From NCBI GenBank assembly GCA_004431415.1, contig QPMI01000641.1, positions 114,079-178,078 of the forward strand: a stretch of 64,000 bases of DNA, in the 5' to 3' direction. Positions 13,460 through 39,870 of this stretch are shown here, in pieces. This stretch comes from Cyanophora paradoxa CCMP329 (Eukaryota; Plantae; Glaucophyta). The translations under genes and the position numbers were made by a program. Positions within the stretch are counted from its first letter, which is position 1; each line of letters opens with the position of its first letter. The notes below the pieces were generated by a model. It had not been told where the DNA came from. It saw only the letters and a list, made by a program, of their open reading frames with translations, and ran no database searches.

Positions 13460-14521
13460 TTAGCGTTTCGTTAAACCACTTCTCAAATTGTATCTCCTCC
13501 GAATTACATTACTCCGATTGGGTTTTATGCCTTCTTTTGCTACCAATCGATTCACTTTATTCGTTTTATTAACCTGCTGAATCCGTTTTTGTGATGGTAT
13601 CTTAATGATATCATCTTTATTCACCTTTTGCAATTCTTGTTTCTTAAATCTCCTCTTCACTTCTTTTGTTTCCTCACCATCATTATCTTCAAGCACTTTG
13701 AAACGATTCCTATCAGCCTTTGCAACAGTGTAGACCTTCTGACTGAATTGCGCACCTTCTTTTTCAAACAATCCCTTTGGTTGCAAAACTCGAACTGTGT
13801 CTCCTGGTTTCACTTGATTAGTATCAGCCTCCTTTACACGATTGTTGTGAACAGTATCCCTCATGTAAATAAATAACTGTTTATCTTCATTTGTATACAC
13901 TGCATTTGGAGAGTCATTTTTCAATGCAGAATGGGGACTGCTATTATACAAGTCAATTACATCACTAAGTAGATCGATCCATTTCGTGGTTCCCTTTGCT
14001 GTCATCGATTTTCTGAGATACTGTTTGAAAGTCCTAGTGAACCTATCAATTATCCCCAGTTTATCTCCTACTGTGATGTGGTCATCCTTTGCCACATCTG
14101 TGTATAGCATTACACCATGTTCACTGCACCAATTTCGGTATACTGCCTGGGAAAACTCATTATCCCCAGAGAGAGCATTAACTTTGCCTGCTTCTTGCTT
14201 GAACCTATTTAAAATGCTCGGGATCTCACTGCTGTTTTTAAAAGGATAAACAAATCCTTTGCGACTAAGTATGTCTACGAAACTAAGCATTTTGAAAATG
14301 CCATTGTTGGCAGTCTGAAACCCTCTGAAATATGTTATATCGATTTGAAACGATCTAGGCTTTGCCACTATGCGAAGAAACGATTTGGGTTTCCTTGGTT
14401 TCTTGTAAATTTGCTGGAGTTCTGAGTTTTTGAACTTCTTTTTCAACTCTTTTTCATCAAAACTCACTTTTTCATTAATCAGTTTCTGCCTATACTTTTT
14501 GAATGATAATACACTATCCAT
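13460..14521 (-). CDS. Retroviral-like (rve) integrase, element B
   Basis: FQID...VDILSRK...SGDNEF...IIDRFTRTFK...YNSSPHSAL...PGDTVRV motifs of Polinton/PLV integrases. Confidence 0.9.
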   Translation of the reverse strand: MDSVLSFKKYRQKLINEKVSFDEKELKKKFKNSELQQIYKKPRKPKSFLRIVAKPRSFQIDITYFRGFQTANNGIFKMLSFVDILSRKGFVYPFKNSSEIPSILNRFKQEAGKVNALSGDNEFSQAVYRNWCSEHGVMLYTDVAKDDHITVGDKLGIIDRFTRTFKQYLRKSMTAKGTTKWIDLLSDVIDLYNSSPHSALKNDSPNAVYTNEDKQLFIYMRDTVHNNRVKEADTNQVKPGDTVRVLQPKGLFEKEGAQFSQKVYTVAKADRNRFKVLEDNDGEETKEVKRRFKKQELQKVNKDDIIKIPSQKRIQQVNKTNKVNRLVAKEGIKPNRSNVIRRRYNLRSGLTKR

Positions 14522-16051
14522 TATTGGGCGGCACAGTTACACTTAATATGAGAGAGGAAACAATTTTTGGTAATGTGAGCCACAGCATTATTAATTCGAT
14601 CTACCGAAATATCTTCAAAGTCCATGGCATTGTAGCATCGCAGGCAATGCCCATACTGCTTCCCATATCGCTGCTTGATCCAATCCCATGTGATGTAATC
14701 ATGCTCATCGAATTGTCTGTTTGCTGCTCGGTCCTGATCCTTGTAAGTCGAAATCTTCTCGTTATTCTCTCTTTTCCACACTTTCCAGTGAGCCATTTCG
14801 AAATTATCATGGTAAATAACAACATCATCCAGCCTTGTGGTTCGAGTGAGAGCAACATATAGCCACTTCTTTGAAACAAATGGCGCCCCAGTTTCGAACA
14901 CGACTACCCTGTTCCCTTTGCAGCGAATCGTATCACCTTGAACAACATGGCAGGTGTTTGCGTAAGCCAGGGCGAAATGTTTGACTGCATCCCTGCTGAG
15001 AACAATCTCATCCTTCTTGTTGGCAATGTCAGCAATAATGAAACTGTCCTTTGAGAGCTTGACAATCTTGTAGACAAATCCATTATGAACTATCTTCCCA
15101 CCCTTTGCAATACGAGTCTTTGCAACAACTTTGATCCCGCCAGCATAAATGGAAACATTATCCCCGTAGTTCATTTTGTGAAGGGCTAGGTTCACCTCTG
15201 CACCCTTGCGGTTTGTATACACAATGCCTTTATCTGTCTTTGCCAATTCGTCCACAACCTTGAACCCGTACTTTGCTAGGACCTCACTTACACTCAAACC
15301 TTTCTCGAATAAATCAATTCGAATTTGCTCAACCTTTCTGCGATCTTCCTCAGTCTCATGGCGCTTGTTCACTTGGAGTAACAATTCGTTGGGGAACAGG
15401 CGATGGAGGATATCAAGGTAATACTCATCTTGATCAACACTCATATCCTGAATGGGTGGGTTCTGATACGGGTCACCTGTGGCAATGTATACCTTATCTG
15501 GGAACTGCTCATTCATGATGTGGTCCAGGGCTGCCAGTTCTCCAATCTTAAACTGACAGATCTCATCAATAACAATGCAATCAAATTCTACCAAACCAGA
15601 TGCATTCCCTCCTACGATTTCATCCATGTTCGACTCATCGATTTTGAGATGAAGGGCATCATAGATTGTCTTCACATTTTTCAATCCTTGCTCTTTCATT
15701 TCCTTCACTCGCTTGTTGGTCGGAACAATATAGAGGGGATTTTTGAAACGCTTCCCATATTCAACTGTCATGTGAGTCTTTCCAACTCCTGGAACTGATC
15801 CGAGAAGAACCCATCGTTTTTGTGTAGCCAGCAAATCACAAATCGCGGTTGTGTCATACTCATCAACCACAGAGTGTTTGGTATAACTGTAGTTCTCGAT
15901 TTTCACAAAGTCAGTCGCTCTCTCAAACTTTCCGTAACGAATTCGTTTTGCCTCGAGGTCTTTCTTCTCACCTGAAAACTTTTTAGAAAAATTGGGGCAG
16001 CATTTCACACTGAATTTTCCAATATTCTCAAAGGCATTGCGATCGAATGAC
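14521..16051 (-). pseudogene. 3' part of element B PolB-SF1 helicase-HNH fusion (helicase plus HNH-like domain)
   Basis: SF1B motifs GSVPGVGKT, IVIDE, GDPYQ, TCHVVQG, LYVALTR. C-terminal CLRC...SVDRINN..H...N...HIKCN. Confidence 0.9.
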
Positions 16052-16428
16052 TGTTGTAAAGGGGAGGACCCCACCCCAAACCAGACCACCGACTAGTCTG
16101 GTTTTACCTTCAGGGATCCACCCCTTCTAGCGTCATCGATCAACAATTTCCCTGAAAGATTTTTAGACGTGCTCCAAGTAGATGTGTTGATGGGAAAAGC
16201 ATGGATATGGAGAATGGAGGGCGTGAGGGTGAGTACAGAGAAGCTAAACGAGGAAAATGTGTTAAGCTATAGCTAGGCGATATTAATGAGTACAGAGAAG
16301 CTAAACGAGGAAACGTGTTAAGCTCTAGCTAGATGTAATTGATGTGTACAGAGAAGCTAAACGAGGAAAAAGCGTTAAGCTATAGCCCCACGTAAGGACG
16401 GGCCCCCAGAGCGGTCTGGTGCGGCCTC
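16052..16428. repeat. Left TIR of element C
   Basis: Reverse complement of 36930-37306 with a few mismatches. Contains three tandem units of about 57 bp (GTACAGAGAAGCTAAACGAGGAAA). Confidence 0.95.
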
Positions 16429-16771
16429 ATTCCACTTGATCTGGTTGCTTTTCCGAAACTGGAGTCTTCTCCTTTCTGAAACTTGATAGCAGGGACTTCT
16501 TTCTTTTCAGGGGCTTTGGGATATTTGGGGGTGGCCAAGACGATCTTCGGTTATCAGAATCAAGCCATGGTACAGGTGAGTCGGATCGTGTAAAAGGAGA
16601 ATTGGACCTTGAAGTCCCAGGTGTGTTATTAGGCGATAGCTGAGTATCAGGGGTGCGCGACCCCTCAGTGTCAGATATTTCGAGGTTAATAGTTGTCTCG
16701 CAGCAGCTGCATTTCAATTTGCTGGTGACGTTGAGATGGAACATCTCCATGCATTTACGGAGCAAATCCAT
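16427..16771 (-). CDS. Hypothetical protein (Cys cluster, Ser/Pro-rich, basic NLS-like KPLKRKK)
   Basis: ORF fills the gap between the TIR and the fibre cassette, with AT-rich upstream sequence. Confidence 0.55.
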   Translation of the reverse strand: MDLLRKCMEMFHLNVTSKLKCSCCETTINLEISDTEGSRTPDTQLSPNNTPGTSRSNSPFTRSDSPVPWLDSDNRRSSWPPPNIPKPLKRKKSLLSSFRKEKTPVSEKQPDQVE

Positions 16772-16802
16772 CTAGTATGGGCTATATATAAAAACAAAGA
16801 TT

Positions 16803-17636
16803 CTATGGGTTGGGATCAGCCCCACCAATTGGGAAATAACGATTCGAATTGAACGTTTCCCCGTACTTGACACCATTTGCAATTGCATCTGTTCTTTCGG
16901 CAAATAGAATAATTTTATAGGCCCCCATGAGCGTAGCCCTCACAATAAACTGGTAATCTTCAACCCCCACTGGAGTAGAATGGAAAGCGACACCAAAATT
17001 GTCGATCGGATTGATTAAAACAGCTATGTTTGGCCGGAGAGCATCATTCCTCCTACAAAGGAAATAGATATCAGGGGGAATATCAACAACACTCTTGAAG
17101 TGATTTCCGAGTGGCTGAACGTTATCTACGATCGATGTTTGCTCATTTATATTTAGCGTGAATAGTTTGATGATATAAGGCAAATTCATACCAGGAACAT
17201 ACGTTCTGATTCTTTCATTAGTGTTTTCAGGGTTAGGTTGATCATTAACAAATATAGGGGCGCAAGCAGCGCCACCCACTCTCAGACCATCTCCAATATA
17301 AGCACCTCCAAATCTGCAGGTCACAGCTCCTATTCTTGATTCGTAGGTAAAAGTATTAACCTTGTTAGCATCGTCATAGCTATCAGGATTGCCATAATGC
17401 GCATTAAAATTAGCATTAGTTACAAGGAGATTAGTCGTTTTAATAGTGCCATTATTTTTGTCACATCGAACCTCTCCTAAACGTAAAATGTGATTTTCTC
17501 GGAAGGTGTTTAGAGTTGGCTGCTGCTCCGTTGATTGTAGGCCGGGGACGTCATCTGAGATGGCGTGCTGCAGGACGTGATTTACTGGGGCCGCAAGGGT
17601 TAAAGTTGGAACAACAATTCTTTCAACAGCTTCCAT
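16803..17636 (-). CDS. Putative fibre/receptor-binding paralog 1
   Basis: Shares the N-terminal module (H..SD..PG..STE...F....LR..E.R.D.N.G..KTT.L.V.N...GGAYIGDG) with three neighbours. Confidence 0.65.
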   Translation of the reverse strand: MEAVERIVVPTLTLAAPVNHVLQHAISDDVPGLQSTEQQPTLNTFRENHILRLGEVRCDKNNGTIKTTNLLVTNANFNAHYGNPDSYDDANKVNTFTYESRIGAVTCRFGGAYIGDGLRVGGAACAPIFVNDQPNPENTNERIRTYVPGMNLPYIIKLFTLNINEQTSIVDNVQPLGNHFKSVVDIPPDIYFLCRRNDALRPNIAVLINPIDNFGVAFHSTPVGVEDYQFIVRATLMGAYKIILFAERTDAIANGVKYGETFNSNRYFPIGGADPNP

Positions 17637-17664
17637 TTTAGAAAACAGAAGATAAAACTTTCAC

Positions 17665-18513
17665 TCAAGCTATAGGATTTTCAGGACTGATCTCGTCGTA
17701 CATATTATTCAGTGCTGGATCTGGGTTTAGTCCTCTAGTAGCCGCTGATGCAGCTACATCGGAGCGATAGCCGATGATTAGGATAGAATACCTGCCTATA
17801 GCGGTAGCATATAAATCGAAAAGATGCCTTGTATTAATATTACGAACAACGTATCCACGTCCTGCGTGTCCTAGACCCTGTACAAAGAACGTATACACAT
17901 GCCCTATCTGATCATTTTGATCTTGACAGAGCGATTGAAGTGCCTTGGGGATTTCTCTGTTTGAAAGCAACCTCTCACCATCCAGACCATTAGGTGTACT
18001 TGAATTAGCTATTGTTATCTCAACTTCTACTAAAGCCTGTGCATAGGGAAGGTCACAGCAGGGTACATACATGCGAACTCGTTTACGATTTTCAGCATTC
18101 TCTAATGAAAAGTCCGGGACATCATTAATGGCAATCGATGACGAAAGCCCTCCACTAACTCGGCAGGCTCCGGTAATAGCTGCCCCTCCGGAACGCACAG
18201 TGAGAGCAGCAGTGTTTTGATCGTAGTTTATGCTTCGGAGGTCAACACTGTACGAATCAACTCCCCCTGTTATGGGCTGGGAGAAATTCGCGTTTGTAAC
18301 TAGTAATCTAGTTGTTTTTACAACCCCAGAGTTTTTATCTGCCCGCAATTCTTTACACCGAATCACTGATCTCTGATCAAATGCATTAGTAGAGTTTGGT
18401 CGCTCGGTGGACTCTAATCCAGCAATAGCATCGCTAACTTCATGCTGCCTCATATGGATGGCTGGGGAGCCCAGCGAGTAGATAGGTAGTTGGACCCGAT
18501 TGTACTCGGTCAT
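17665..18513 (-). CDS. Putative fibre/receptor-binding paralog 2
   Basis: Same N-terminal module. C-terminus related to paralog 1 (RVRMYVP..DLPY; Y.I.....R.D). Confidence 0.65.
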   Translation of the reverse strand: MTEYNRVQLPIYSLGSPAIHMRQHEVSDAIAGLESTERPNSTNAFDQRSVIRCKELRADKNSGVVKTTRLLVTNANFSQPITGGVDSYSVDLRSINYDQNTAALTVRSGGAAITGACRVSGGLSSSIAINDVPDFSLENAENRKRVRMYVPCCDLPYAQALVEVEITIANSSTPNGLDGERLLSNREIPKALQSLCQDQNDQIGHVYTFFVQGLGHAGRGYVVRNINTRHLFDLYATAIGRYSILIIGYRSDVAASAATRGLNPDPALNNMYDEISPENPIA

Positions 18514-18567
18514 TTAATAGAACCGCGAGAGAAAAATAAATGAGGTTGCAGACAAGAGATAGCTTCA

Positions 18568-18831
18568 CTACTCTTCTGTGACATTGTTATACTCGATGCC
18601 TTTCTTTACTGTTCCCCTTTGGAATGCCTGTAACACAATGGCTTCCTTTGAGGTTGGTATTTGAACTCCTGATGAGATGCAAGATTGAATCTCTTTTTGA
18701 ACAATCTCCTCAATTGCAATTCTTGCCCTGTTATGAACAACATTATCAATCCAATCCTGAACAGAAGCAGCGCAATATTCCATTCCCAACTTTTCAATAT
18801 CTGAGAGAGCCACTTGGTATATATTCGACAT
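18568..18831 (-). CDS. Small protein resembling phage fibre-associated proteins
   Basis: MEYCAASVQDWIDNVVHNRARIAIEEI pattern, recalled from small ORFs beside fibre genes of marine phages (not verified). Confidence 0.55.
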   Translation of the reverse strand: MSNIYQVALSDIEKLGMEYCAASVQDWIDNVVHNRARIAIEEIVQKEIQSCISSGVQIPTSKEAIVLQAFQRGTVKKGIEYNNVTEE

Positions 18832-18852
18832 TCCTATTTTATAGAGAGAAAA

Positions 18853-19875
18853 TTATGTGAGACTGAGAAGCTCACCTGTGAATGTTGTTCGATTTGTGTA
18901 GCTACCCCCATTATTTGTTACAAGTGTTACATACTCACCCATAGCAATGTTGAGAATTACACTAATGTAAAGCGGTTTATTCGTGAGAGTGGAGTTATTT
19001 TGTGTTATAATACTTTGACCCCCTGGGTCTTGGTCATTTACTTTTAAAGAGAGACTTATTGGACTACTTGATGTTGAATGGGTATATGCTGTAAATCTGT
19101 AATGACCTGCAACAGGAGCAGTGAACCTACCATTACCCACATTGAATGCCCCCCTATTATTCACAAACACTACCCCCCAATTGATAAGAGCAGTTTCACT
19201 GGTAGCAACATGAGGATAATTAAGTTGAACAGAAAATCGAGGCTGAAAATCATATTTTAAATAACAATTTGTATTAATTGTCAAGCGATTGGCTTCAAGA
19301 GTAGCCAAAACATCACTATTGCGTTTCAAAACAAGATTTACATCTGCTCCTGTATCGATTTCAGGTGTGACCACCTTGGAAGTTGCTGTTATTATCGATT
19401 GTGTTGTTTCTGGAATACTTATGCCTCCATGGGCTGTTACTGAACCTGTAAATGTGCTTGTTCCTGTAATGTTCACTTGATTGGCTGTTAGAGTTCCATC
19501 AATCCTTGCCCCATCTCCAATATATGCCCCTCCACTTCTAACTGAAAGAGCAGCATTATTAATTGTATTATCAAAAGTAACTATTTTGGGTGTGGTGAAC
19601 CCTCCCACATTGTCATAAATTGCTGTATCTGAAACAATTTGACCTGATTGGACTTGGTTCTTGTTAGATACAATGAGACCTGTGGTTCTCACTTTTCCCC
19701 CATTGCGATCACATCGAATTTCTTTACATCTAATCACAGAGTTCTGTGAAAACGAATCAGCCCCTGTTGTTTCTGTGCAAATAAACCCAGGTGTTGCATC
19801 TGTTACTGTATGGTTCAGTTGATGTATTTTTGGGGCGGCATAACAGAAAACAGGAACAGCAATTTGTGTAGACAT
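18853..19875 (-). CDS. Fibre protein with C-terminal C1q-like domain (paralog 3)
   Basis: Shared N-module. C-terminal PRFSV...VFVNNRGAFNVGNGRFTAPVAGHYRF...FTGELL is a C1q signature. Confidence 0.8.
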   Translation of the reverse strand: MSTQIAVPVFCYAAPKIHQLNHTVTDATPGFICTETTGADSFSQNSVIRCKEIRCDRNGGKVRTTGLIVSNKNQVQSGQIVSDTAIYDNVGGFTTPKIVTFDNTINNAALSVRSGGAYIGDGARIDGTLTANQVNITGTSTFTGSVTAHGGISIPETTQSIITATSKVVTPEIDTGADVNLVLKRNSDVLATLEANRLTINTNCYLKYDFQPRFSVQLNYPHVATSETALINWGVVFVNNRGAFNVGNGRFTAPVAGHYRFTAYTHSTSSSPISLSLKVNDQDPGGQSIITQNNSTLTNKPLYISVILNIAMGEYVTLVTNNGGSYTNRTTFTGELLSLT

Positions 19876-19897
19876 TCTTTATACTATACAGATAATA

Positions 19898-20968
19898 TTA
19901 TGTAGCACTAACAAGATCACAAGAAAGATAGTATCTGATATCAAATTGAAGAGTGGCACCAGAACTATTGCGCATATCAAAGGAGTCACCTTGAATAAGA
20001 GAAAGTAAAACTTCAAATGAAATTGGAGTTACAAATGTATTAGAAATCCCCGCGGACGGCATTGAAACTCTTGTTTGGAGGGTTGTAGGATTTCCATTTA
20101 AATAAATGCTGGTAGCAATATGAGTATAAGAGGTTGTGCCAGCTCTCATGCATGCAAAGAACACCCTATATACTCCGGAAACAGGAGCTGTAAATTTTGT
20201 GGATGCAAAGTTTCCCTCATTGTTTACAAAATAAGCTCCACCTGTAAAGGAAAATGCTGTTGCAGTGTTAAGTATTACTGTCCCTGTCATACCAGGAGCT
20301 TGTCTTGATATATTCATTCTTGGACAATAGGTTCGTTTCAGACCACTATTTTCCGGGATTGTGATTACATTCAGATCTGTTATTGTCTTTTCGAGAGTGA
20401 AAATGGTATCTCCGTTTCGTTTGTAATTCATATTCACATTTGTCCCATTGTCTATCTCAGGTGTTTGAACTCTTGTGGTTGCTTTTCGAGTTTCAACGCT
20501 AACAGTTCCCGAGAGTCCGCCATTGAAGGTCATCAATCCTGTAAATGAACTTGTTCCATTCACATTAAATTGATTTGCTGTGACAGTCCCCACCACAATT
20601 GCTCCATCACCAATGTATGCCCCTCCACTCTTGACCACAAGAGCCGAGTTATTACTTGTGTTATCAAAAGTAACTATCTTTGCTGTGGTGAATCCACCCA
20701 CATTATCATATATTGCTGAATCGGGGACTACCTGCCCTGCTTGAACTTGATTTTTATTCGAGATTATAATGCCTGTGGTTCTAATCTTGCCTCCATTTCG
20801 ATCACATCGAATTTCTTTGACTCTGAGTATACTATTCTCTGTGAAAGAGGTATTGCTTGAAGTTTCTGTGGAAATATACTCAGGGGTTGAATCAACTACT
20901 CCATGAGAGGTGCTGTGAAGTGATTTTGCGGCGAGTTCATAGTTTGGGATTTCTAATAGAGAGGTCAT
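19898..20968 (-). CDS. Fibre protein with C-terminal C1q-like domain (paralog 4)
   Basis: Start taken at MTSLLEIP. N-half highly similar to paralog 3. FVNNEGNFASTKFTAPVSGVYRV. Confidence 0.8.
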   Translation of the reverse strand: MTSLLEIPNYELAAKSLHSTSHGVVDSTPEYISTETSSNTSFTENSILRVKEIRCDRNGGKIRTTGIIISNKNQVQAGQVVPDSAIYDNVGGFTTAKIVTFDNTSNNSALVVKSGGAYIGDGAIVVGTVTANQFNVNGTSSFTGLMTFNGGLSGTVSVETRKATTRVQTPEIDNGTNVNMNYKRNGDTIFTLEKTITDLNVITIPENSGLKRTYCPRMNISRQAPGMTGTVILNTATAFSFTGGAYFVNNEGNFASTKFTAPVSGVYRVFFACMRAGTTSYTHIATSIYLNGNPTTLQTRVSMPSAGISNTFVTPISFEVLLSLIQGDSFDMRNSSGATLQFDIRYYLSCDLVSAT

Positions 20969-20987
20969 CTTTATAATTACGAAATAG

Positions 20988-23900
20988 TTAAATTGCGACA
21001 GCAATGTAATGAATTGTAACTGGAAATCCTGGTCTGTCAAAAGAACTTAATGGAACTATGCCAAGCTCACAAGTGAAATAGCTACTGTAAACTTGTTTAA
21101 GCCTAACATACATTCGATAGTAGTAGGCTGTCTCATTGTGTTGTATACCAGTTGTTACAATAGGAGGGTTAGCAAAGCTGCTGTTGAAATTAATAGTGAG
21201 GTTAAACCTATGGTCAGGATTTGCCCAAAGATAAGGAGTAGTGTAAACATACGTTCCTGCTTGGATTTTCCCATTAAAATACGCATTGAGTTGACTGGAT
21301 AGATCCGCTTCTGTAATGCATCTACTGATAGTCTGATTATTTGAAGGGTTCATAGCATAAAAGTTTCTTGCATAGGCATTTCCACGAACAAGTAAGGTTT
21401 TATCGAAGTAATTTTGCGAATTGTGGAAAAACCATGTTTCATCAAACATAGGTCCTGCTGGTTCTACAATCTGACCTGATCCTACATACATTGTGTTGTT
21501 CGCTCTGATGGTGGTAGCTGTAAAGGGATCGAGGGTGGGTTTATTGGTCAGGTCATTGTAGTTGCCCGAAAAAATCGCTGGTTTGTTATAAATATCTGTA
21601 TTCCAATCATGAGTGTGTGCAAAATCTGTAATCTCTGCCTTTGTGTGGGTGTGACCTACATACGCAACATTTCCAAGATCTGTAATCTCTGCCTTAGTGT
21701 GGGTGTGCCCAACATATGCAACATTTCCAAGATCTAGAATCTCTGATTTAACATGAGTGTGGGCGAAATTCGTAATATCTGCTCGGGTGTGATAGTGTGC
21801 AAAATCTGTTATTTGGGACTTGGTGTGAGTGTGTGCGAAATCTGTAATCTCTGCTCTTGTGTGGGTGTGGGATCTATTATTAAGATCGAGGAAACTCCCG
21901 AAAATGCAACAGGGTGTAGATTCGCCGCAGTAGGTTTGTTAATAAGATCATTATAGTCTCCTGAGAACGAAACGGTTTTCAGTTCACCCCTTCCTACATA
22001 ATCCGAAGGGAGATCGATTTTGATGGGCATGATAGCAGGATCAATAGGAATTTCGTATTCGGCTCCTGGGTGAATCACAGGGAAGACTTGATCATTTTCA
22101 GTGTGAACAAAAAGTTGTCGGCAGTCACTGTTCCGTCAATAGTTCCTCCTGTCAAGGGAAGGTAATTTCCTGTCACAGCTAGACCTGCAATAACTAATGC
22201 GAGCTCTGCTTCGTCTACGTAGTTTTGGGCTTGAAGATAATCCTCTGTAACCACTCTGGATATTGTCTCGTTGTGAATGTTCTTTGCTGCTGCCCTCTGA
22301 TTTATTTCTAAAACTCCCTCGCCAACTCCACCATTATAATTCGTTTTAATCCATGCTATTTCACATTTTTTATAATCGTCTCGGTTTCCAATTAAAGCTT
22401 CGGGTAAAAGGCGTTCACGGCTAAATACCAATTTCGGTCTCGATGAATCTAAATCGCTAACATCTGTTACATTAATCTGGATTGCAGAATGAAAATCAGC
22501 ATGGGAGAGAGGATCTAACGGCAGTGAAGGCAAAGGAGGTAGAACAGATGTCATTTCGATGTCAGAGGCGTAGTAGTTTGTGACATAAATACTTGGGAAC
22601 GTGTCCTGCAAACCGATATTCCCGCCAGCAGCAACTATCTCCATTCCACGGGGAATCCTTATAAACAAAGAGCCTGACATGTCAGTGTTAGCACGAATTC
22701 CCTGCCTGTGGACATAGTGGTCATTCAAATATAACCTTTCAGGGGTGTTAATTGATTTGTAGAGAGAGACAGCTAGTGTGACAGGAAGCTCAATCTTTGC
22801 GAACTCGGGCTGCTCATCTATTTCGCTCCAAATGTGTCTGTGATCTTCCGGTGGAAATTCAAGCGGAACATTATCAAGGTCACCCCAGTCGTGTCTATGA
22901 TCCTCTGGAGGAAATTTAAGCGGTTTATTATCGATATCATCCCAGTCGTGTCTATGATCTTCTGGTGGAAATTGCAACGGTTTATTATCGATTTCATCCC
23001 AGTTATGTCTGTGATCTTCCGGTGGAAAATTCTCAGGTTTGTTGTTAATAGATTCCCAGTCCACTGTGAACTCCAAGGGGAAGAAAATAGGATCAAAGCC
23101 GTCTGGAAGCAGCTGCTCATGCGGAATCACAGGCTGCTCGTACTCGAGTTCTTGAACATCTAAGCCATCAGGAAGTAACTGCTCTTCCGGCTCTGTGTAC
23201 ATCTCGAGTGGAAAAACTTCTATATCAGGCGGTAGGTATTCTTCATGCGGATGCTTATAGGGTTCAATCACTGGGCGATTCCTGACAGCCTCCCACGATA
23301 TAATATTTTGACCAAATGGGATTGTTTCATCAGCAACTCGCTCTCGACCTGGTCCATCCGGGATTGGCGGCTTTGGTAACCCTGGAAGAGGCGGTATAGG
23401 TGGTATAGGGACAATAGGTCCGAAGTAGTAGTTGAAAATGTTGATCACCTCCTCTTCAGTGCTAACCTTCTTACCATCCTGATAAATATTAGTTCCATGA
23501 ATATTTCTCCACTGCCTGGTGCGAAGCCCTAGGTCATATCTATCATGCAATGCGGGGAGCAGGTGCCTGTCAGCCTCAATCAAGATAGAGCCAAAGGTGC
23601 ATCCAGGAATATCTAACCTGGTGGCTGGCTCGGTATCGATTTGATTAACATCGAAACCGTACAAAATATTTGTCTCTCTTGCAGCAGTATATAGTAAATC
23701 CCAGGGAAACGGCTGAATTTGTGATGCTAGCACTGATATTCCTGCATCTTCACCAAGGAGAATTCTCCCTGTAATTTGGGCCGCAGTTTTGTTTGTGACA
23801 TCATTGGATTCATCAATTAGACGTAGAGCTGATGTGTGGACCCCTCTATCATTTTGGAGCCTAAAGATTAATCTACCAGAATCATATTTGGAAACTGTGC

Positions 23901-24186
23901 CTGAGGAGGCAATTCGCAGGTGCCGCGGCAACGCCCTGGATCCGATTATTTCAGCAACATAATTCTCAGCTGGACCCAGACAAAATCTCTGTGCGATATT
24001 TGGGGCACCGACGTGTGAATTGCGCAGAATTAATGCAGCTGGTCGATTAAACTCGGTCCTGTGGATGTCACGATCAGCATTGTAGTCAGCCAAGATGCTT
24101 CCGAAAACGCGAATATTTATATGTCGATCATCCACGAGATCTGGAGCTTTACGAAGTGGCACTGGCTTCTTCAAGATGTAGGACAT
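20988..24186 (-). CDS. Long tail-fibre-like protein (about 1066 aa after correcting two 1-nt deletions)
   Basis: PPEDHRHxWxxIDNKP x4, YLPLTGGT, FSGDYNDL.NKP and HTHT.AEITDF repeats, with a C-terminal INFNSSFANPPIVT lectin-like tip. Frameshifts near 22110 and 21897 join track ORFs 22075..24186, 21809..22078 and 20988..21491. Confidence 0.75.
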
Positions 24187-24210
24187 TTTTATATAAGCCC
24201 CCTTTTAAAA

Positions 24211-27114: not shown

Positions 27115-27141
27115 TTTTATTCTCTAACTGATATAAAAAAG

Positions 27142-29599: not shown

Positions 29600-29707
29600 T
29601 CACAGTGTCGCCAGACAAGCCGAAGGCAAGGAGCCTTCTTGGCTCCGCACTGACTCGCCTGCGGTCGCGGTTGTGTTTGCCTGCGAATATCAATAGTTAA
29701 TTTTTTG

Positions 29708-30448: not shown

Positions 30449-30457
30449 GAACAGAAG

Positions 30458-31096: not shown

Positions 31097-31607
31097 AATT
31101 CAGACGCAGAAATGGACGGTCCTCGGCGGAAGTTTGATCAAGGGCATAGGTGTCTCTGGCTTTAGCAGCGGCTTCAGCAGTGGTAAAGTAGCCGATCGAC
31201 TTTTGGCGCCCATTCATCTTACAATACGCCTGCCATTTACCACGCTGCTGATGGAACGATACACCAATGAAACCGCTGGTGTTATTGCGCTGCTGGCCAC
31301 GGTTTAGAGTCTGCTGCCGCTTTGTTGCCAGTCGAAGATTTTCGCGACGATTATCTTTTGGATCGTTGTTGATATGATCGATAGTTAAACCGTTTTCGAG
31401 TTCGCCGCTGATGAAGTTATGCAACAACACGGTCTTTCTGTTGATCGTGGTTTGAGCATATCCAAAATTATGTAAACTCCAGCGGAATCCAAGCACGCGC
31501 TGAGCATCATCCTGTGAAACAAGAGCATAAGCAACGATGACTCGACGATGATTGCGAATTCCACCAAGCGGTATCGCTACAGCGCCTTCTGGAATTGTGA
31601 CCTCCAT
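31044..31607 (-). CDS. HNH-AP2 endonuclease
   Basis: HNH: LHNFI...IDHINNDPKDNRRENLR. AP2: NTSGFIGVS....KWQA.......IGYF.T.E.AA.ARD. Confidence 0.92.
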   Translation of the reverse strand: MEVTIPEGAVAIPLGGIRNHRRVIVAYALVSQDDAQRVLGFRWSLHNFGYAQTTINRKTVLLHNFISGELENGLTIDHINNDPKDNRRENLRLATKRQQTLNRGQQRNNTSGFIGVSFHQQRGKWQAYCKMNGRQKSIGYFTTAEAAAKARDTYALDQTSAEDRPFLRLNFTTESAVHPELPSSVSL

Positions 31608-31636
31608 CTTCTTTACAATCTGAGATTGAGATCTCT

Positions 31637-32059
31637 TTAAGGCAAGTCAAAATCGGGCAAATCTGTAAGATCTTCTACAGTTGGTTTCCTCTCTCGCTCT
31701 ACATATTCAAGCATCCCGTTTACTGTTGACAGATCGTTCGATTGACATATTTCAAAAGCACGCTGCAATTGCCTCTTATCGTACTCACGCAGATGTTCCC
31801 AAGACAATAACCATTCGGCGTATTTTGGATCGGATAAAACTACTTTAAGATGAGTTTCACCTTTATACTTCCCAAATCGAATTGTTCCTGCGGGCATTAT
31901 TTGAATTATATCTCGGATTTTATGTTCGAAATTTAACGCAACACAAACCTGCGATTTATGCCATAAAAAGATTTCGCACATTGTTTGTGACGAAAAACCC
32001 GCAAACATGGATGCTGAATCATCACCTAAGCGTTCTGGGCGTAAGCCAATTGTTGTCAC
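31637..32059 (-). CDS. Small protein with FGKYKG..P.Y..W motif (DUF3820-like); true start probably internal (MPAGT)
   Basis: IRFGKYKGE.....LSDPKYAEWL. Confidence 0.6.
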   Translation of the reverse strand: MTTIGLRPERLGDDSASMFAGFSSQTMCEIFLWHKSQVCVALNFEHKIRDIIQIMPAGTIRFGKYKGETHLKVVLSDPKYAEWLLSWEHLREYDKRQLQRAFEICQSNDLSTVNGMLEYVERERKPTVEDLTDLPDFDLP

Positions 32060-32282
32060 CCCTGAAATCGCTGCGGCAAGGAAAGCAAAGCGTGCAGAAT
32101 ACCATCGCCGTCGTTACAATGAAGATCCTGATTATCGGCAACGTCATATTGAAGCCAGTTTGAAATATCAACGCAATAACAGTGAGAATCACTTAGAGGC
32201 AAATCGCCGCTATCGCAATCGAATTTACGAAAAGTTAGCGTTGCTAGAGTCCCTCCAACAATGCGTTGTTATAGCGCTGTAA
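32007..32282 (+). CDS. Small basic helical protein
   Basis: 91 aa, Arg/Tyr-rich. Resembles 40112..40369 in character. Confidence 0.6.
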   Translation: MDAESSPKRSGRKPIVVTPEIAAARKAKRAEYHRRRYNEDPDYRQRHIEASLKYQRNNSENHLEANRRYRNRIYEKLALLESLQQCVVIAL

Positions 32283-32330
32283 TGGATGACAATTTGTAAA
32301 AAGAGGGGCACGAATGAAGCCCTTTCTTTT

Positions 32331-33518
32331 TCACGCTCGTGGGCGAAGAGTCCGTGTATTGCCAGGGGCTGAGTACGCTGCAGTTTTATTCTGGAACGAC
32401 GAATACCAGCGCGCTGTTGCACCTCCTGGGTTCAATTTCTCTTTACCTGCAGTCAATAATTGCTTTTGCAAACGCTCGAGTTTGCGCGCTTTCTCTATAT
32501 CACTCTTGTCTAGTTTCTCTCGCATCAGATTTTGCTCCTTCTTTCGTCGTTGCATAGCTCTCTGTGCTGCTCCTCCAGCACGACGTTCCTCTGAATCTGC
32601 CGCTACTTTCAATAGTCGCTGGTAGGTCACCGCTTTGTCGTAGCCCGAAAGCGTAAATTTGAGCAGCGGTCCAAAGCCACCTATCTCCATAATCGTATAG
32701 ATTTCTTTTGAATACGTCGGCTTTGAAGATTTGTCGAAACGTTTTTTCTCTAGCTGTACCCGCACGCGATCGCCTACTTTAAATTCGGCCTGTGCAAAGT
32801 AGTGCTGTTGCTCGTACGCTTCTCTCTGGTAGTCATTGCGTGCAATTGTCTCCTTCGGATTTTCTGCTGCAGCGTTCGGCGACGTACCGATCGACCTATG
32901 CTCTGATGAATTATAGTTGCGCACAAAAGCAGGCAGCTTTTCAATATATCTGTCCGTGTCGTACGCATCCATGTACTTCGCAATGATGCGCTTAAGCGTA
33001 CCATTAAATCTTTCTATTTTGCCGTTTGCTTGCGGGCGATGCGCCTCCACTGCATTATGCTTGATTCCCATACTCGCCAGCATTGCTGCTGCGGTTCCCT
33101 TAAACTCCTGATCTGTCTGAATGACGTCCGGCTTCGAGGGCAGTTCATCAATCAATTTCTTCAAACTGGCTAGCAGAGTGCTTTCCGATTTCGTCTTCAT
33201 AGGGATGCTATACGCTTTGCGCGTCGTCACATCTATTCCGTTCATAATAAATGTAATCCCTCGATTTGATCTTGCATACGGGGTGACATCAATCAAATCA
33301 ACTTCATAATACTTTTCGGGCTCCTCGTAAATAATGCTGGTGGACGGCTTTTCCTTTACAGTTTTCGCAAAACGCTGTGCCGTCGTTAATTTTGAAAGCA
33401 CGTCCTGCACTTTTGAGAGCGGCAGATTAAGCCGCTTAGCTAAACGTGCTGCAGACTGAAAACCAGTTTCAGGATCATAATAAGCTTGTTTAATTCGACT
33501 CGCTTGCTCGGTACTCAT
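32331..33518 (-). CDS. Retroviral-like (rve) integrase, element C
   Basis: YYDPETG, EVDLID, IQTDQEF, IERFNGTLK, YNSSEHRSIG, FKVGDRVRV. DDE triad intact. Confidence 0.95.
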   Translation of the reverse strand: MSTEQASRIKQAYYDPETGFQSAARLAKRLNLPLSKVQDVLSKLTTAQRFAKTVKEKPSTSIIYEEPEKYYEVDLIDVTPYARSNRGITFIMNGIDVTTRKAYSIPMKTKSESTLLASLKKLIDELPSKPDVIQTDQEFKGTAAAMLASMGIKHNAVEAHRPQANGKIERFNGTLKRIIAKYMDAYDTDRYIEKLPAFVRNYNSSEHRSIGTSPNAAAENPKETIARNDYQREAYEQQHYFAQAEFKVGDRVRVQLEKKRFDKSSKPTYSKEIYTIMEIGGFGPLLKFTLSGYDKAVTYQRLLKVAADSEERRAGGAAQRAMQRRKKEQNLMREKLDKSDIEKARKLERLQKQLLTAGKEKLNPGGATARWYSSFQNKTAAYSAPGNTRTLRPRA

Positions 33519-36500
33519 GAGGGACACTACTATAGTACTCGTCTGGAATTATCTTGCGCTTTGTATACTGCGACTTGTTGAGTTGACGCGCAAATGGTAT
33601 CTGAATAATCGAACTAAAGCCGATTCCACTGTCCCGCTGACGCCCGTTTGGCCTATAAACACGCGCTAGCTTTGATTCAATCATGCACTGAGGTTGATAT
33701 GTTGAGTCCTCCAGCATGCGTTTGTAAGCGTCAAGAGCAGTCCTGTTCGCGATGGTTTCCTTCCTTGCTTCTGTTTCGTCCGGCAGCCAGTGCTCCTGGA
33801 TCCACGATTGCGGAATCCCCTTTGCGCGTACATGCAGGTCAAGCTGTGCGTCGCTGTCACGTACAAATGAACATGTATAAAGCTTCGGCCCAATGAAGTA
33901 CGCTTCCACAATCCGCCCTTTTATATCGCAGTCAAGTTTCCCTAATTCCTGCCTGCAAATGTCCGCATCTGTTGCCGTCGCTATATCATATGCTGGCTTC
34001 ATATACCCTTTCGCCCGCAGCAGATCAGCGTATTTTCGATGGACAATCAAAGAGTCCGTATCAGTATAAAACGGCATTGCATCAATGCTCCAGTATGCGC
34101 CTATTTCAACCAGAAATCTGTCCATGATCTCCCGCGAATATGACAGAATGAATGCACCAATAAAGCACGGTTTAGTGACAGCTCTATCACGCTTGGAGTC
34201 CTCAATCTCGTACGTGACAAACATCCGCGTGTCTGACTCAATTGAAATGTCTGTGATCTGCGCTGATCGCTGAATTTCTCGAAATCGCTTGTATGATGTC
34301 ACCAGATCCGAGGTTGTGATCACAGGCCGCTGGCAATACTTACCGTAAAGGCCATTCATGGAAATCTTTGATGTTGCATACTGAGCTGTTCCCTTGCGAG
34401 ATCTAGCTTTCTGGCAGTACATCCGCTCCATGTAGGTCTTAAACATCTGATCTTTACCATCAAACAGGTATACCTCATGCACCTTCGTCACCTCGCATCC
34501 CAGTTTAATTGCACGATTAATATCGACTGACGTATACCAACCACGCTCAATTGGCTTGAGATTAGACCAGCCTAGGTTTGATTCATGCCGCGGCAGCGGA
34601 GAGAGCAGCAGATTTTGCGGAATTGTCACGTCCACGCACGCTATAAACATCAGCGAACGCTGACTCGATTGGACAAATTTGCAGAATCTGTCCAGTGCAT
34701 CGGGCGACGTAATATGCTTGTACTTACCAGTCGGAAACCAATTCTCGTACATAGCCGTCGGATACAAGCTTACAACATCCAGGTCGACTAAATAATCATC
34801 CGGGCCCGATGAGACGAATTTGCGTTTAAATGGGAGACACCGACCACCATATATTGCTTGGCGCAGCACCTGATCATCCTTGTAGGTCGGCAGCGAAATC
34901 GGATTGATCAAAGTCTGCCGATGAATCTGGAACGCCATTGCCGAAGCTGTGGTTGTTTGCGTCGTGTTCACGTTTAAGCCGTACAGATCAAAGACTGCTG
35001 TCGAATATTTAATGTAAAGCTCTGTCATTGCCTTAACGTCGTCTTCCACGTACGGCTCCCATTCAGATTTAAAACGCTCAACATCCTCCCACGTTTTAAT
35101 CTTGTTATGATCAAAATCTCCCTTTACATTCGTGCACCCGTAATCTTTGCATGCCGACTTTAGCGAGGCCTGGATGTGAAGACATGGATCAAACGTGCTG
35201 ATTTTCCCTCCCGCACCAGTCTTCCACGACATACTCTTAATTTTTCCGTTCGATCTCAGAACGTTCACGGCAGTCTCCGCTCGATTAAGCACAAGCCATT
35301 TGTAGACGAATATATAATCAAACCCAGACCCGTTGTAGAAAATCAACGTGGTATTCTCGTTGCGTTGCTCGAGCCATCGCATGAATGTCTCCAGTGTTTG
35401 CTCACCATATACAACCTCGCAAGGTGATATCTCCCCATTATCGATCGTGCAATAGCTCATAGCGTATGGAACATGCGTCTTGCTATCAGGAGCAAACGTC
35501 TCGAAATCCGCGCAGACAACGCTGTCCAACGCTGAAAATTCTGTCTCCGGTTTGCAGGGCTTGATTTGTCGCCCGATCACATTTTGCCGCCGCGTCATTT
35601 TCTGACATTCCGATGTGTGGTCCTTCCGCGGGTCGTAAGCACGCTTGCACTGATTGCAAAAGCTGCAGTTTGCTCGGTGCGTCGCCAAATCAAACATCTT
35701 TCCGCAACAAGGGCACTTCTCAAGAGACAGTGTTGCTTCGTTCTTTACGAGGAAACAATGTCCGTCTATATTGCAAAGTATCGCTCGCTTTGAAAAGCTC
35801 AGCTCAGTTCGAAAAAGCTCCTTAAACTTTGTTGCTTCCCACTCCGTCACGGTTGCATCAATCGAATAAAACCTGCAGATCGTTTCCACTGTCCTGCAAT
35901 CGAGAGATATCATTCCCTTCGCTAGTCCCATCTGCTCTCGAATAGACGTATAGGGCGCCTTCGCTAATTTTTCAATCACTGTCTTCAGACTTAAACCCCG
36001 TGGATTTAATTTTACGTACTCAAAACACTCCAGCACGCAATCATTAGCTGGTGACATCGGGCAGTACAGTTTATCTACTGTCCTGTGGTAAAACGGCAGT
36101 TTCGGGATGTTCCCCAGGGCGCCTGCCGCGTTGTCTGCAATCAACACCTCAATCGATGTTACTACCCAGAAATCATCTTCCTCGTACGACATTTGAGCTG
36201 CCATCCACTGCGCGATGCGCTCATCCAAACTCTCGGTCAAAACTCGAAGCCCGTTTTGCCCAATTTGAATCAGCTGAGTTGTGTACATTTGATTTTTTTC
36301 GAAGCGGAAGCGGATAATCACAAACCGGCCTATCATTCCCGCCACACCCAAGTGATCAAGAATGTCGATCGCTATGGTTTTTACCTCCTCCGGGTTCCAA
36401 TTTGGTGCGATCGCAAACACATGCTTATCAAACAACAAATTCGGATAGCGATGGTGTCTGTGAGAAAGCACGCCGTCTAGGACTTCTGTTACTCGAACAT

Positions 36501-36816
36501 CTTCGACTTCCTGAAATATGTTCGGAACGTCCTCTAGGATTGCCTCCTCGGCTTGAACAGCGTTTGCACGCGCTGCTGCTATTGCACCAAAATGCCCCGC
36601 TACCCTTGACTCAGGCAAACGACGAGCAGGACGAACTGTGCTCCGCAGTCGCAGCATTGTCGCAATGTATTTACGAATCGTTCCGGACCAGGTCCGTCCG
36701 CTTGTATCGGTCAGACGAAGCAGCTTGTTTCGAAAGGAGCCACGAATATATCCACGCTCATAGAGTTCGATCGCTAAATTCCTAAGCTCAGCTTTGAGTA
36801 ATGCGGTGCTTGCCAT
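33490..36816 (-). CDS. polB: Protein-primed family B DNA polymerase
   Basis: Exonuclease: ADFET, YNGSGFDY, Y..DDV. Polymerase: YGGR, DVVSLYP, K..MNGLYGK, YTDTDS, KLY, KGIP. Confidence 0.96.
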   Translation of the reverse strand: MASTALLKAELRNLAIELYERGYIRGSFRNKLLRLTDTSGRTWSGTIRKYIATMLRLRSTVRPARRLPESRVAGHFGAIAAARANAVQAEEAILEDVPNIFQEVEDVRVTEVLDGVLSHRHHRYPNLLFDKHVFAIAPNWNPEEVKTIAIDILDHLGVAGMIGRFVIIRFRFEKNQMYTTQLIQIGQNGLRVLTESLDERIAQWMAAQMSYEEDDFWVVTSIEVLIADNAAGALGNIPKLPFYHRTVDKLYCPMSPANDCVLECFEYVKLNPRGLSLKTVIEKLAKAPYTSIREQMGLAKGMISLDCRTVETICRFYSIDATVTEWEATKFKELFRTELSFSKRAILCNIDGHCFLVKNEATLSLEKCPCCGKMFDLATHRANCSFCNQCKRAYDPRKDHTSECQKMTRRQNVIGRQIKPCKPETEFSALDSVVCADFETFAPDSKTHVPYAMSYCTIDNGEISPCEVVYGEQTLETFMRWLEQRNENTTLIFYNGSGFDYIFVYKWLVLNRAETAVNVLRSNGKIKSMSWKTGAGGKISTFDPCLHIQASLKSACKDYGCTNVKGDFDHNKIKTWEDVERFKSEWEPYVEDDVKAMTELYIKYSTAVFDLYGLNVNTTQTTTASAMAFQIHRQTLINPISLPTYKDDQVLRQAIYGGRCLPFKRKFVSSGPDDYLVDLDVVSLYPTAMYENWFPTGKYKHITSPDALDRFCKFVQSSQRSLMFIACVDVTIPQNLLLSPLPRHESNLGWSNLKPIERGWYTSVDINRAIKLGCEVTKVHEVYLFDGKDQMFKTYMERMYCQKARSRKGTAQYATSKISMNGLYGKYCQRPVITTSDLVTSYKRFREIQRSAQITDISIESDTRMFVTYEIEDSKRDRAVTKPCFIGAFILSYSREIMDRFLVEIGAYWSIDAMPFYTDTDSLIVHRKYADLLRAKGYMKPAYDIATATDADICRQELGKLDCDIKGRIVEAYFIGPKLYTCSFVRDSDAQLDLHVRAKGIPQSWIQEHWLPDETEARKETIANRTALDAYKRMLEDSTYQPQCMIESKLARVYRPNGRQRDSGIGFSSIIQIPFARQLNKSQYTKRKIIPDEYYSSVPHEYRASESN

Positions 36817-36929
36817 TATACTAGGCTTTCAGAATGAATATTGGGAGGCCTATTGTTTTTGGCGTTTCAACGCATCAATCTCTGATCGATAACATAGTGT
36901 GCGTTTCCTTTATAACGTGTCCATCTCCA

Positions 36930-37306
36930 GAGGCCGCAGCAGACCGCTCTGGGGGCCCGTCCTTACGTGCGGCTATAGCTTAACGCTTTTTCCTCGTTTA
37001 GCTTCTCTGTACACATCAATTACATCTAGCTAGAGCTTAACACGTTTCCTCGTTTAGCTTCTCTGTACTCATTAATATCGCCTAGCTATAGCTTAACGCA
37101 TTTTTCTCGTTTAGCTTCTCTGTACTCGCCCTCACGCCCTCCATTCTCCATATCCATGCTTTTCCCATCAACACATCTACTTGGAGCACGTCTAAAAATC
37201 TTTCAGGGAAATTGTTGATCGATGACGCTAGAAGGGGTGGATCCCTGAAGGTAAAACCAGACTAGTCGGTGGTCTGGTTTGGGGTGGGGTCCTCCCCTTT
37301 ACAACA
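36930..37306. repeat. Right TIR of element C
   Basis: Reverse complement of 16052-16428. Confidence 0.95.
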
Positions 37307-39870
37307 AATGACACTGGGGCAATGGGTTCATAAGCGATCCCATAAACACAATCGGTGTTCAAAGCGAGTGGTCGGATCTGCTGTTTAGCGAGTTCGACAC
37401 ACTTCTCATACATACACATCCTCATAATTGACAAGAGGGTAGTGTACAATGGCATGAAGCCATCAATGAGCTGCTTTTCTGCTACCTGATTGACATAGTA
37501 GATATGGGGTTCGGTCATCTCTTCCTCACACAGAACGAACTCTGTCTCCTCATAAGTGGCAAGAGTCTCACCAAAGAGGTAAATTTTAACCTCCCCTCCG
37601 TTCTGTTTCTGGAACTCGATCGCATCGTCTCTGTTGTGGAAAATGGTGGTTTTCACTCTGCTATTTCGTTGCTTTCCAGTTTGCCCAATTGCACTCACCA
37701 AGATCTGCTTCTTATCAACAGGATCGAGGTCGCTATCTAAGATTCGAGCAACTGTGTTGCCTGCAAGGTTGGGAATGAGTTTGTAAGGTCGCAGAACCGC
37801 TTTGATGGAGATGTCATCCTTGAAATCCTCGAAATGCTTTTTGAGAACCAAACCAGGAACGACATTGTACTTGGAATCAATGATCATCCTCTTGTATCTG
37901 TTGTAGGTGTTTGCTTCGTACTCCTTTCCGTTCTTGTCTTTGGCTTTGAAAAAGTATTTGTCGTCCAGTTTCACGTAATAGAAGCTGTATTCCTCGATTT
38001 GCTCTGCATCTGTGATTGTCACACTCTTGAAGACATCGAACTTGCTGAGAACAGGAACGAATTTGATCATCAAGGCTACAATGTAAGGGTATGCTTTGCA
38101 CATATCGAACTCGTAAATATCTGTGTTATAGCGAATTTCATCAAAGGTCTCCTCATCCACATCAAAGAGACCACGAAGGGCAGTCTGCACTCCATTCTTG
38201 AATGCATTTATGGTTTGCTCATTGTAAGTACTCTTGTTGGAAGTGTTGATTAGAGACCTATACATATCCAGATTTAGTTTCTCGAATTTATCTCTGTACT
38301 CAGCATTCTTGAAGCTAATCTCGAAAGCTGTTTCCACATCTGTATCGTTACCAGGTGGGGTCACGACAACATCCTTATCGTCAATAGTGAAACGAATATG
38401 GGTTGCCTTTCCGATTTGGGAGAACCCAGGTTGGACCTGATAATTATGCACCACAATGAACTCTCTGAGTAGTTCATCCAGTGAACCACCATAGCAGATT
38501 CGAATGCTCGATTGGTTCTTTGGATTGTCAGACCTGACAATTCTCAGAATGTCATCGGGATTTGTGGCAAACTCCTTGAACCTTCTTTGCTTTATAATCT
38601 TGTAACGAGAACTGAGTGGAACATTGGTATCTTTTGGCTTGGAGCCATTGAAGGACTGTGTGAGAGCCTTAATATTGTGATTTAACAAATACATGTGACC
38701 ATTCTCAATCTTCACATATGCAACAGAAGGGGTCAAGTGTGTGTTCCTGGTCTTGGGCAGGAAAGTCAGTTCAGGGACAGGGGTTCTGTCGTCCTTTCCA
38801 ATTGTAACCATGCCTAGGCGCAGTGGGTCAAGAACCTTCTCCGAAATGGACTTGAAAGAAATGCCCCAATCATCTCCTTCAACAGGGTCTCGCCCATTCA
38901 CCATCTTAAAGAGTCCGTTGTAAGACCAATCGATTCGCTTGTATTTCCCTTTGGTCTTAGCCTTCTCAAACGCTCCTCCAAACCATTTGATGAGGACATC
39001 GAAAACACACTTCCCAACCTTGAATGAATCACCTTTCAAGAACATTTCCTTGAATGTGGTGGCTTGGGGGTTCCCTTCGTTTTTAATGAAATTCGAAATA
39101 ATCATTGGAGCGTTTGTATTGTCTCTGAGGACTTGTTCATTTCTTGGGATGTATTCTTCATTATCTGTCGTGATGACTCTTTCAATTGTCATAATATCGG
39201 GGTAGGTATCTTGCTCAATTAGTTTTAGGTAGCGGAAATCTTGATTGGTCGAGTTAAACTCAATAACTGCTGCAATAAATTCAGCAATGACAGTCCCCTC
39301 AACACATGGGAACGTATTGAAGGTGGATTGAACCAGACCGAGAGCATTCAGAAAAGCTGCCTTGGTACACTGGATACCAAAGGGGCGATTGTTCCGAAGC
39401 CTCTTCGATTCAATGTAGGTCACACCATTCTCAGTGACCCTGTTTGCATTTGCAGGGGTCTGTTCTCCCTCTTGCAACTCACGGAAGAGTCTCACATTCA
39501 GGGTGACCATGTTTCCAGGTGAGTTTTCAACAAACTCACGGAGGTTAGCAATCATCTGCTGGAAAGGAGTCAAGCGCTTCCGCTCTCTCGCTTGCTCCGC
39601 TTTCTTGTTTTGCTTCTCAACATTCTTAGCGGCTCTCTCAGCCCTCTTCTCCTTCTTCTCCTGCTTGCGATACAAACGAGGCTCTACGATACCTCTCAGT
39701 GTATCTCTGATATCAATCAACTTTGGAATTCTAATTGCTTTGAAAGTAAATTCTCTCAAGAAATAGATATCCTGCTCTCGGGTCAATTTGTCTTCTACTT
39801 TTGCTTGCATGTAGTAGCCAAGAATCTCATCCTGCAAATTTTTCGAAATTCGATTACTTGGTCGAGGCAT
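37307..39870 (-). pseudogene. 5' part of element B PolB-helicase-HNH fusion (divergent PolB domain)
   Basis: DMCKAYP, K..L...IG..GK and NTDC motifs. Joins in frame (..APVSF|DRNAF..) to 16045-14521, giving about 1362 aa. Confidence 0.85.

Follow-up and report, generated by a model that had tools for sequence, protein, structure and literature searches.

How can an integrated virus copy its DNA when the only candidate for its replication gene lies in two pieces on either side of another virus? This question is raised by a stretch of 64,000 nucleotides of Cyanophora paradoxa CCMP329 (GenBank assembly GCA_004431415.1, contig QPMI01000641.1, positions 114,079 to 178,078 of the forward strand), hereafter called the window. 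Three viral elements are nested in it: the outer element A, the polinton-like virus (PLV) B and, innermost, the Polinton-type virus C. The pieces flanking C are one gene, the single replication gene of B. Its product is probably a fusion of the pPolB-S1H family, in which a family B DNA polymerase of the protein-primed kind (pPolB) is joined to a helicase, so that the uninterrupted gene would specify a DNA polymerase that is protein-primed and carries its own helicase.

A single replicase gene interrupted by element C

Excision of C with one copy of its target-site duplication joins 39870-37307 to 16045-14521 into 4089 nt, corresponding to 1362 codons and a stop, and the joined frame is stop-free. 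Removal of 0, 3, 6 or 9 bases preserves the frame, and other amounts introduce 21-45 stops. Therefore, the frame by itself does not set the 6 bp; the duplication does. This duplication is perfect and lies at the inverted ends of C (Table 1). The chance of such a 6-mer match is about 2.4e-4, which speaks for C being a real integration. Each half forms a long open reading frame (ORF) of its own in the window, and both ORFs extend into the inverted ends of C.

Comparison of four public runs revealed the empty site in three of them (X1, X2 and X8), the fourth, X20, having almost no cover of the stretch. Each of these three runs holds a contig that follows the window as far as 16051 and then proceeds with the once-occurring window sequence at 37313. 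The X1 record of 2666 nt shows zero differing letters in its aligned part. The single 1362-codon gene is thereby confirmed, and the replicase of about 1362 aa that an earlier first-pass annotation had seen after excising C was correct in coordinates and length. Protein or RNA splicing across C was rejected, as none was seen and the empty-site DNA accounts for an intact gene.

C is inserted 14 codons past the motif-C Asp, within the palm. Neither half is therefore a whole enzyme and the gene is dead at this locus, so that replication of the present copy of B would depend on enzyme supplied by intact copies. At 14519-14523 (minus strand) the stop of the replicase and the start of the B integrase overlap in a TAATG, which suggests coupled translation of the two genes. 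A parallel is found in C, where the pPolB start and the integrase start overlap within 33490-33518.

Relatives of the uninterrupted protein

An HMMER scan with residues 252-854 against 1.84 billion representatives yielded 144 relatives at E<=0.001, counted at 50% clustering. Among the 100 relatives of at least 1100 aa, 99 also match the C-terminal half, downstream and in order. Searching with this half for longer proteins gave 18 further matches of 1043-1527 aa, none informatively named. Residue conservation was counted in alignment A1, which holds 110 of the 144 relatives, 32 being left out as short fragments and 2 as long outliers; overall identity is 18-27%.

Other searches returned less. 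With residues 250-854, a word-based search for homologs among 6513 candidates was empty, the 854-aa N-terminal half had no match in Pfam, PHROGs or the PDB sequences, and one scan of viral contigs with a single protein found no related locus. In BFVD the top match was H6WBE3 (999 aa, E 2.4e-15), which has no name, and the best named matches were pPolBs of bidna-like viruses, mavirus and phi29-like phages.

Polymerase palm

The N-terminal half was modelled from an alignment of 60 of the 144 relatives, with a predicted local distance difference test score (pLDDT) of 83.7 and a predicted template modelling score of 0.79; a single-sequence fold with a pLDDT of 33 was discarded. All nine PDB structure matches at E<=0.001 were phi29 polymerase. 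Superposition of residues 430-854 against phi29 residues 6-473 by the program VIA-align gave a Z score of 13.1 and a root-mean-square deviation of 4.5 over 331 aligned residues, compared with Z 7.8 over 145 residues for Pol alpha, representing the RNA-primed enzymes. An independent wide structure search returned phi29 as the sole match at Z>=8 (Z 12.9). On this model, the palm is predicted to be of the protein-primed type (TPR1/TPR2). The first-pass annotation had staked its reading beforehand on a PolB palm fold being predicted in this half, and that fold is predicted.

The catalytic residues are nearly invariant. Asp589 of motif A is kept in 109 of the 110 relatives, and Lys721, Gly729 and Asp840 in all of them. 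Because both catalytic Asp residues are retained to this extent, an active polymerase is the favoured prediction. DMCKAYP and NTDC, the motifs in which these two residues had first been noticed, thus stand.

A likely exonuclease remnant

The structural alignments begin at model residues 430-432. Their starting points are residue 6 in phi29 and residue 136 in the KOD-type enzymes, of which residues 136-561 align to model residues 430-854. We take both starting points to fall inside the exonuclease domains. Sliced profiles of the family were also compared with a profile of 96 relatives of the C pPolB and aligned in order over the vOTU domain, the ExoII region and motifs A-C. The ExoII region (B 436-496 against C 473-533) scored 24.4, whereas 20 column shuffles scored <=14.7. 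The probabilities of the sliced profiles were 2.8-8.8%, with 2.8% for the remnant and 4.1% for the true palm, values that count only alongside the fold result, and as they are low the evidence for a remnant is moderate. When whole-length profiles were run against the lone sequence of the C pPolB, the one match was Cys-rich and spurious, and it was set aside.

Based on these alignments, a dead exonuclease remnant of about 115 residues likely lies between the vOTU domain and the palm. The position of the ExoII Asp faces Leu in the B family, and no invariant acidic residue exists within 395-585, the best column being 75% D/E. The statement of the first-pass annotation that no exonuclease motifs are present thus holds for the catalytic motifs, but not for the fold, of which a remnant is likely retained. 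We tentatively propose that this branch, by keeping about 115 residues of dead exonuclease, is intermediate between Polinton pPolBs and the helicase fusions, and that the sub-lineage of the window protein polymerises without the motif-B Asn; taken together, these two points seem possible rather than probable. Among the exonuclease passages listed for the text of PMC11161782, PMC13215967 and two 2026 preprints, figures aside, none states such a remnant in the fusion; it may be depicted already in PMC11161782, in Fig. 6 and Figs S6-S7.

N-terminal region and protease

Residues 1-250 comprise a helical part and an alpha/beta domain, and their position, as the only pointer, suggests a terminal protein (TP). 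Atlas matches to this region scored 0.79-0.83, under 0.9, and are leads only. For residues ~255-400, OTU domains of both cellular and viral origin were matched with Z 5.0-6.7 over 87-115 residues. These scores are middling, and the assignment draws on the many matching structures, their common range and the Cys/His pair, with Cys288 kept in 104 and His392 in 109 of the 110 relatives. The two short motifs that had been read as a vOTU-like pair, GKCVF and NGHMY, therefore lie in an OTU fold.

Helicase and HNH-like tail

The family profile matches Pif1/RecD/Dda structures at 3e-22 to 1e-11. The helicase motifs are intact and invariant in the family, including the Walker A Lys944, the Asp-Glu pair at 1015-1016 and motifs III, V and VI. 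The SF1B helicase of the first-pass annotation is thus borne out, as is its C-terminal HNH, the latter through the relatives: their tails match endonuclease VII and HNH PHROGs, down to 2.9e-8, and Pfam HNH was matched in 3 of 29. The tail of the window protein itself gave no direct match to a named family in the libraries and aligns with these tails; against PacI, the family profile gave a weak match there (E 0.2). The tail pattern occurs in 78 of the 100 full-length relatives, and most of the misses look degenerate.

The third zinc Cys is His in the window copy and Cys in all 22 tail-bearing rows of a further alignment, A3. In addition, motif VI was recognised by pattern in 81 relatives, and in 7 of them the chain ends <=16 residues past it, though some of these may be truncated calls; GIY-YIG replaces HNH in one relative (E 8e-8). 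Because the tail is swapped or missing in these proteins, the nuclease module appears swappable and is probably not essential. The relative with GIY-YIG is P0132; those without a tail are P0011, P0018, P0021, P0025, P0045, P0047 and P0118.

Proposed mechanism and alternative explanations

All activities of the protein, together with the terminal-protein role and its cleavage, are what we infer from the family, and on this basis we propose the following scheme. The N-terminal domain would serve as the terminal protein and prime synthesis at the inverted ends, and the vOTU protease would cut it free of the chain. The palm might then extend the primer without proofreading, its exonuclease being reduced to a dead remnant, while the SF1B helicase would open the duplex ahead of it. 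The HNH tail may be an accessory or passenger endonuclease that is dispensable for initiation.

Several observations weigh against this scheme. The first position of motif C, usually Asp, is Asn here and Lys, Asn, Arg or His in 105 of the 110 relatives, and the motif-B Asn, kept in 93 of them, is Val in the window protein. Residues 120-250 have no listed fold match and no profile match to the N-terminus of canonical pPolBs, although this is no evidence for a new fold. The searches returned no named Tlr1, transpoviron or TVS1 sequence for direct comparison. Furthermore, the B/C junction is bridged by none among the contigs listed, so that support for the interrupted allele comes from the window and the target-site duplication. 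This last point, with the fact that each half is a long ORF, would suit a reading of two separate genes, or of a nest produced by faulty assembly. The empty-site contigs, the one-chain relatives, the perfect 6-bp duplication and the continuation of both ORFs into the inverted ends make that reading highly improbable, and two separate genes are refuted by the first two of these. The altered motifs B and C and the dead exonuclease could also mean that the palm is a dead scaffold, with only the helicase (and the protease) at work and a host or giant-virus polymerase copying the element. That was the 2016 view of the family, the relevant passages of PMC5499653 interpreting the palm as inactivated. 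We hold it to be improbable, as 109-110 of 110 distant relatives retain the metal-binding Asp pair and the Lys of motif B, unlike the acidic residues of the exonuclease, and PMC11161782 lists active PolBs that lack the same motif-C Asp. Absence of the motif-B Asn also recurs: the 17 relatives without it are scattered over a rough FastTree tree, and six of seven proteins in the group that holds the window protein lack it (SH 0.92). This suggests a trait of the lineage and not that this copy has decayed. A loss shared by a single clade was rejected, as the losses fall in several places of the tree.

The active, protein-primed fusion is compatible with another role of the tail, in which HNH is essential for replication and nicks the inverted ends or resolves intermediates. 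Its frequency among full-length relatives and the relatives' matches to endonuclease VII, a junction resolvase family, speak for such a role; the tailless relatives, the GIY-YIG exchange and the His in place of the third zinc Cys speak against it, and the tails are seen as appended homing endonucleases in the parts of PMC5499653 and PMC11161782 that treat them. We consider an essential tail unlikely. Nicking for initiation or resolution, which the first-pass annotation had put forward, is weakly supported in view of seven tailless relatives and one with GIY-YIG, and protein priming explains initiation better.

The preferred reading, a pPolB-S1H fusion that works as a polymerase when uninterrupted, bears on a question the literature has answered both ways. 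The passages of the two papers cited above, which report no assay, give polymerase activity of pPolB-S1H as 'no' (2016) and as 'yes, predicted' (2024), and the near-invariant catalytic residues across 110 distant relatives favour 'yes'. The natural uninterrupted gene copy provides material to test this activity. If the dead remnant and the loss of the motif-B Asn are true, uninterrupted copies would be a natural enzyme to decide whether the fusions are active polymerases. The architecture itself adds little, as it is published and common, with 144 relatives at 50% clustering. The locus also shows how such genes escape annotation, an 854-aa half having no Pfam or PDB sequence match, and how one integrated virus disables another.

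The nested elements and the flanking DNA

The nest spans 10-49 kb of the window, with a GC content of 42-45% compared with 64% in the right flank (Table 1). B has an integrase, an A32 ATPase, inverted ends and a target duplication, as in a PLV. Its inverted ends are about 406 nt with 1 mismatch and the termini AG..CT, and the target duplication is the 5-bp GGCGC. A Pfam search of its candidate capsid proteins gave no match; the major and minor candidates are 31% and 27% identical to those of C. B sits within a likely capsid gene of A (11916-13053), whose final 28 codons continue past B, after 47054. A and B are 89% identical in the capsid protein, 83% in the ATPase and 70% in the minor capsid protein. 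The left end of A was not found, and A has no replicase or integrase of its own within the window.

Table 1. Positions of the nested elements, their genes and the parts of the B replicase in the window (aa and residue numbers refer to the proteins).
Feature	Position	Strand	Remarks
Element A	10597..49096	none	Outer element, relative of B; interrupted by B
A ATPase	47280-48032
Element B	13054..47049	none	Polinton-like virus hosting C; 12,735 bp once C is subtracted
B rve integrase	13460-14521		rve_3 0.0025, below cut-off; 30% identity to C integrase
B likely minor capsid protein	41517-42404		Size, position, identity to C candidate
B likely major capsid protein	42457-43683		Size, position, identity to C candidate
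B A32 ATPase	43764-44522		Pox_A32 1.1e-15
B replicase gene, 5' part	37307..39870	-	Residues 1-854 and two bases; helical and alpha/beta N-terminus, vOTU, exonuclease remnant, most of pPolB palm
Residues 1-250	39121..39870	-	Helical ~1-116, alpha/beta domain ~120-250; at terminal-protein position
vOTU-like cysteine protease	38671..39108	-	Residues ~255-400; C288 (GKCVF), H392 (NGHMY)
Likely catalytically dead proofreading-exonuclease remnant	38236..38583	-	Residues ~430-545; structural and profile alignment
Protein-primed PolB palm/fingers (predicted)	37309..38235	-	Motif A D589 (DMCKAYP); B K721, V725 in place of Asn, G729; C NTD840C
B replicase gene, 3' part	14521..16045	-	Residues 855-1362 and stop; palm end, SF1B helicase, HNH-like tail
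SF1B (Pif1/RecD/Dda-type) helicase	14809..15822	-	Residues ~930-1267; Pfam AAA_19 5e-8, PHROG Dda-like 1.6e-18
HNH-like (His-Me finger) tail	14524..14757	-	CxxC, DR, H, N, HxxC; Cys/His at 1322-1358
Element C	16052..37306	none	21,255-bp Polinton-type virus; innermost element
C inverted arms	16052-16428 / 36930-37306		377 nt, 5 mismatches, termini TG..CA
C target-site duplication, left copy	16046..16051	+	AATGAC, 6 bp
C target-site duplication, right copy	37307..37312	+	AATGAC, 6 bp
C likely major capsid protein	28139-29599
C A32 ATPase	29708-30448
C rve integrase	32331-33518
C canonical pPolB	33490-36816		1108 aa; PF03175 at 3.8e-52

The ends of B read AGCT..AGCT with the 5-bp duplication (13049-13054 and 47049-47054), and the same terminal motif occurs at the right end of A (49096). 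C differs from both in its TG..CA ends and 6-bp duplication, pointing to two integrase specificities in one nest. C also encodes patatin and C1q/H-lectin fibre genes. They belong to a long series of likely fibre or entry genes at 16803-25695, which includes two C1q-domain proteins, one H-lectin protein, two related proteins without assigned function, a protein of 703 aa that has internal repeats and a patatin lipase extended at its C-terminus. Genes of this sort in glaucophyte PLVs are mentioned in a passage of PMC12220804.

Left of the nest, a large fold-back structure at 1182-9495 has long inverted arms that are 97-99% complementary. It holds GC-rich 41-nt tandem arrays in opposite orientations and three 705-nt direct repeats in its middle, is flanked on its two sides by a 107-nt repeat region (copies at 56-569 and 10130-10643) and adjoins a broken copy of an A/B gene. 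At 12000-18000, runs X1, X2 and X8 contain many variant contigs for C and A and few for the left part of B. The B:A contig depth varies among the runs; contig depths were not taken as copy numbers, and the variation is no more than a hint of a change in copy number or of free viral DNA. The flank at 54324-57970 carries an intron-rich gene for an S-adenosylmethionine-dependent methyltransferase; its introns are short and C-rich, and its product has a leader that likely targets the plastid.

Comparison with known systems

The closest known proteins are the Tlr1-like helicases, which the section of PMC5499653 devoted to them describes as chains of 1000-1400 aa with a pPolB palm, no exonuclease, an SF1B helicase and, in PLVs, a C-terminal HNH. 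The same section suggests that the N-terminal part may contain diverged exonuclease or terminal-protein remnants. The corresponding part of PMC11161782 introduces the name pPolB-S1H, the vOTU with its conserved Cys/His and the TP-vOTU-PALM-S1H layout, and predicts activity. Such fusions are treated as common in passages of PMC13215967, PMC12721341, PMC12220804 and bioRxiv 10.64898/2026.06.19.733378, and the portions of bioRxiv 10.64898/2026.10.13.758929 and PMC8547959 that touch on them add nothing specific. As the TP-vOTU-palm-S1H-HNH layout is already published, the B protein is an ordinary new member of the family, and a categorically new replicase was rejected. Even the partial novelty allowed by the first-pass annotation was too generous: besides the fusion, these sections of PMC5499653 and PMC11161782 also cover the vOTU, the lack of the exonuclease and the HNH at the C-terminus.

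The B protein shares with the pPolB-S1H of PLVs, Tlr1 and transpovirons the size of 1000-1400 aa, the N-terminal domains, the vOTU Cys/His, the protein-primed palm with motifs A-C, the replaced first Asp of motif C, the lack of a working exonuclease, the C-terminal SF1B helicase and, as in PLVs, the terminal HNH. It differs in the Val for the motif-B Asn, the detectable exonuclease fold remnant and the splitting of this copy by another virus. By the descriptions in parts of PMC5499653 and PMC11161782, Tlr1 of Tetrahymena thermophila has the same set as B of rve integrase, capsid genes, packaging ATPase and pPolB-S1H; compared by description only, Tlr1 terminates in GIY-YIG and the protein of the 12.7-kb B in an HNH-like tail.

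Canonical pPolBs are further away. Phi29 DNA polymerase is the best solved-structure match to the B palm, and the 1108-aa enzyme of C aligns with the B protein in order over the vOTU, the ExoII region and the palm motifs, but in both phi29 and the Polinton pPolB the exonuclease and the full DTDS motif are retained, and neither enzyme is fused to a helicase. In the B replicase neither a PF03175 match nor the acidic residues of the exonuclease were found, and it is therefore not a canonical Polinton pPolB; the C enzyme has both. The mavirus pPolB goes with a separate SF3 helicase and carries neither a fused SF1 helicase nor HNH. As for the nesting, elements lying within one another, with one three-level case, are reported for the virophage/PLV arrays of Halocafeteria seosinensis in a section of bioRxiv 10.64898/2026.07.28.741278. 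Unlike in those arrays, B is nested in its own close relative and C strikes the replicase.

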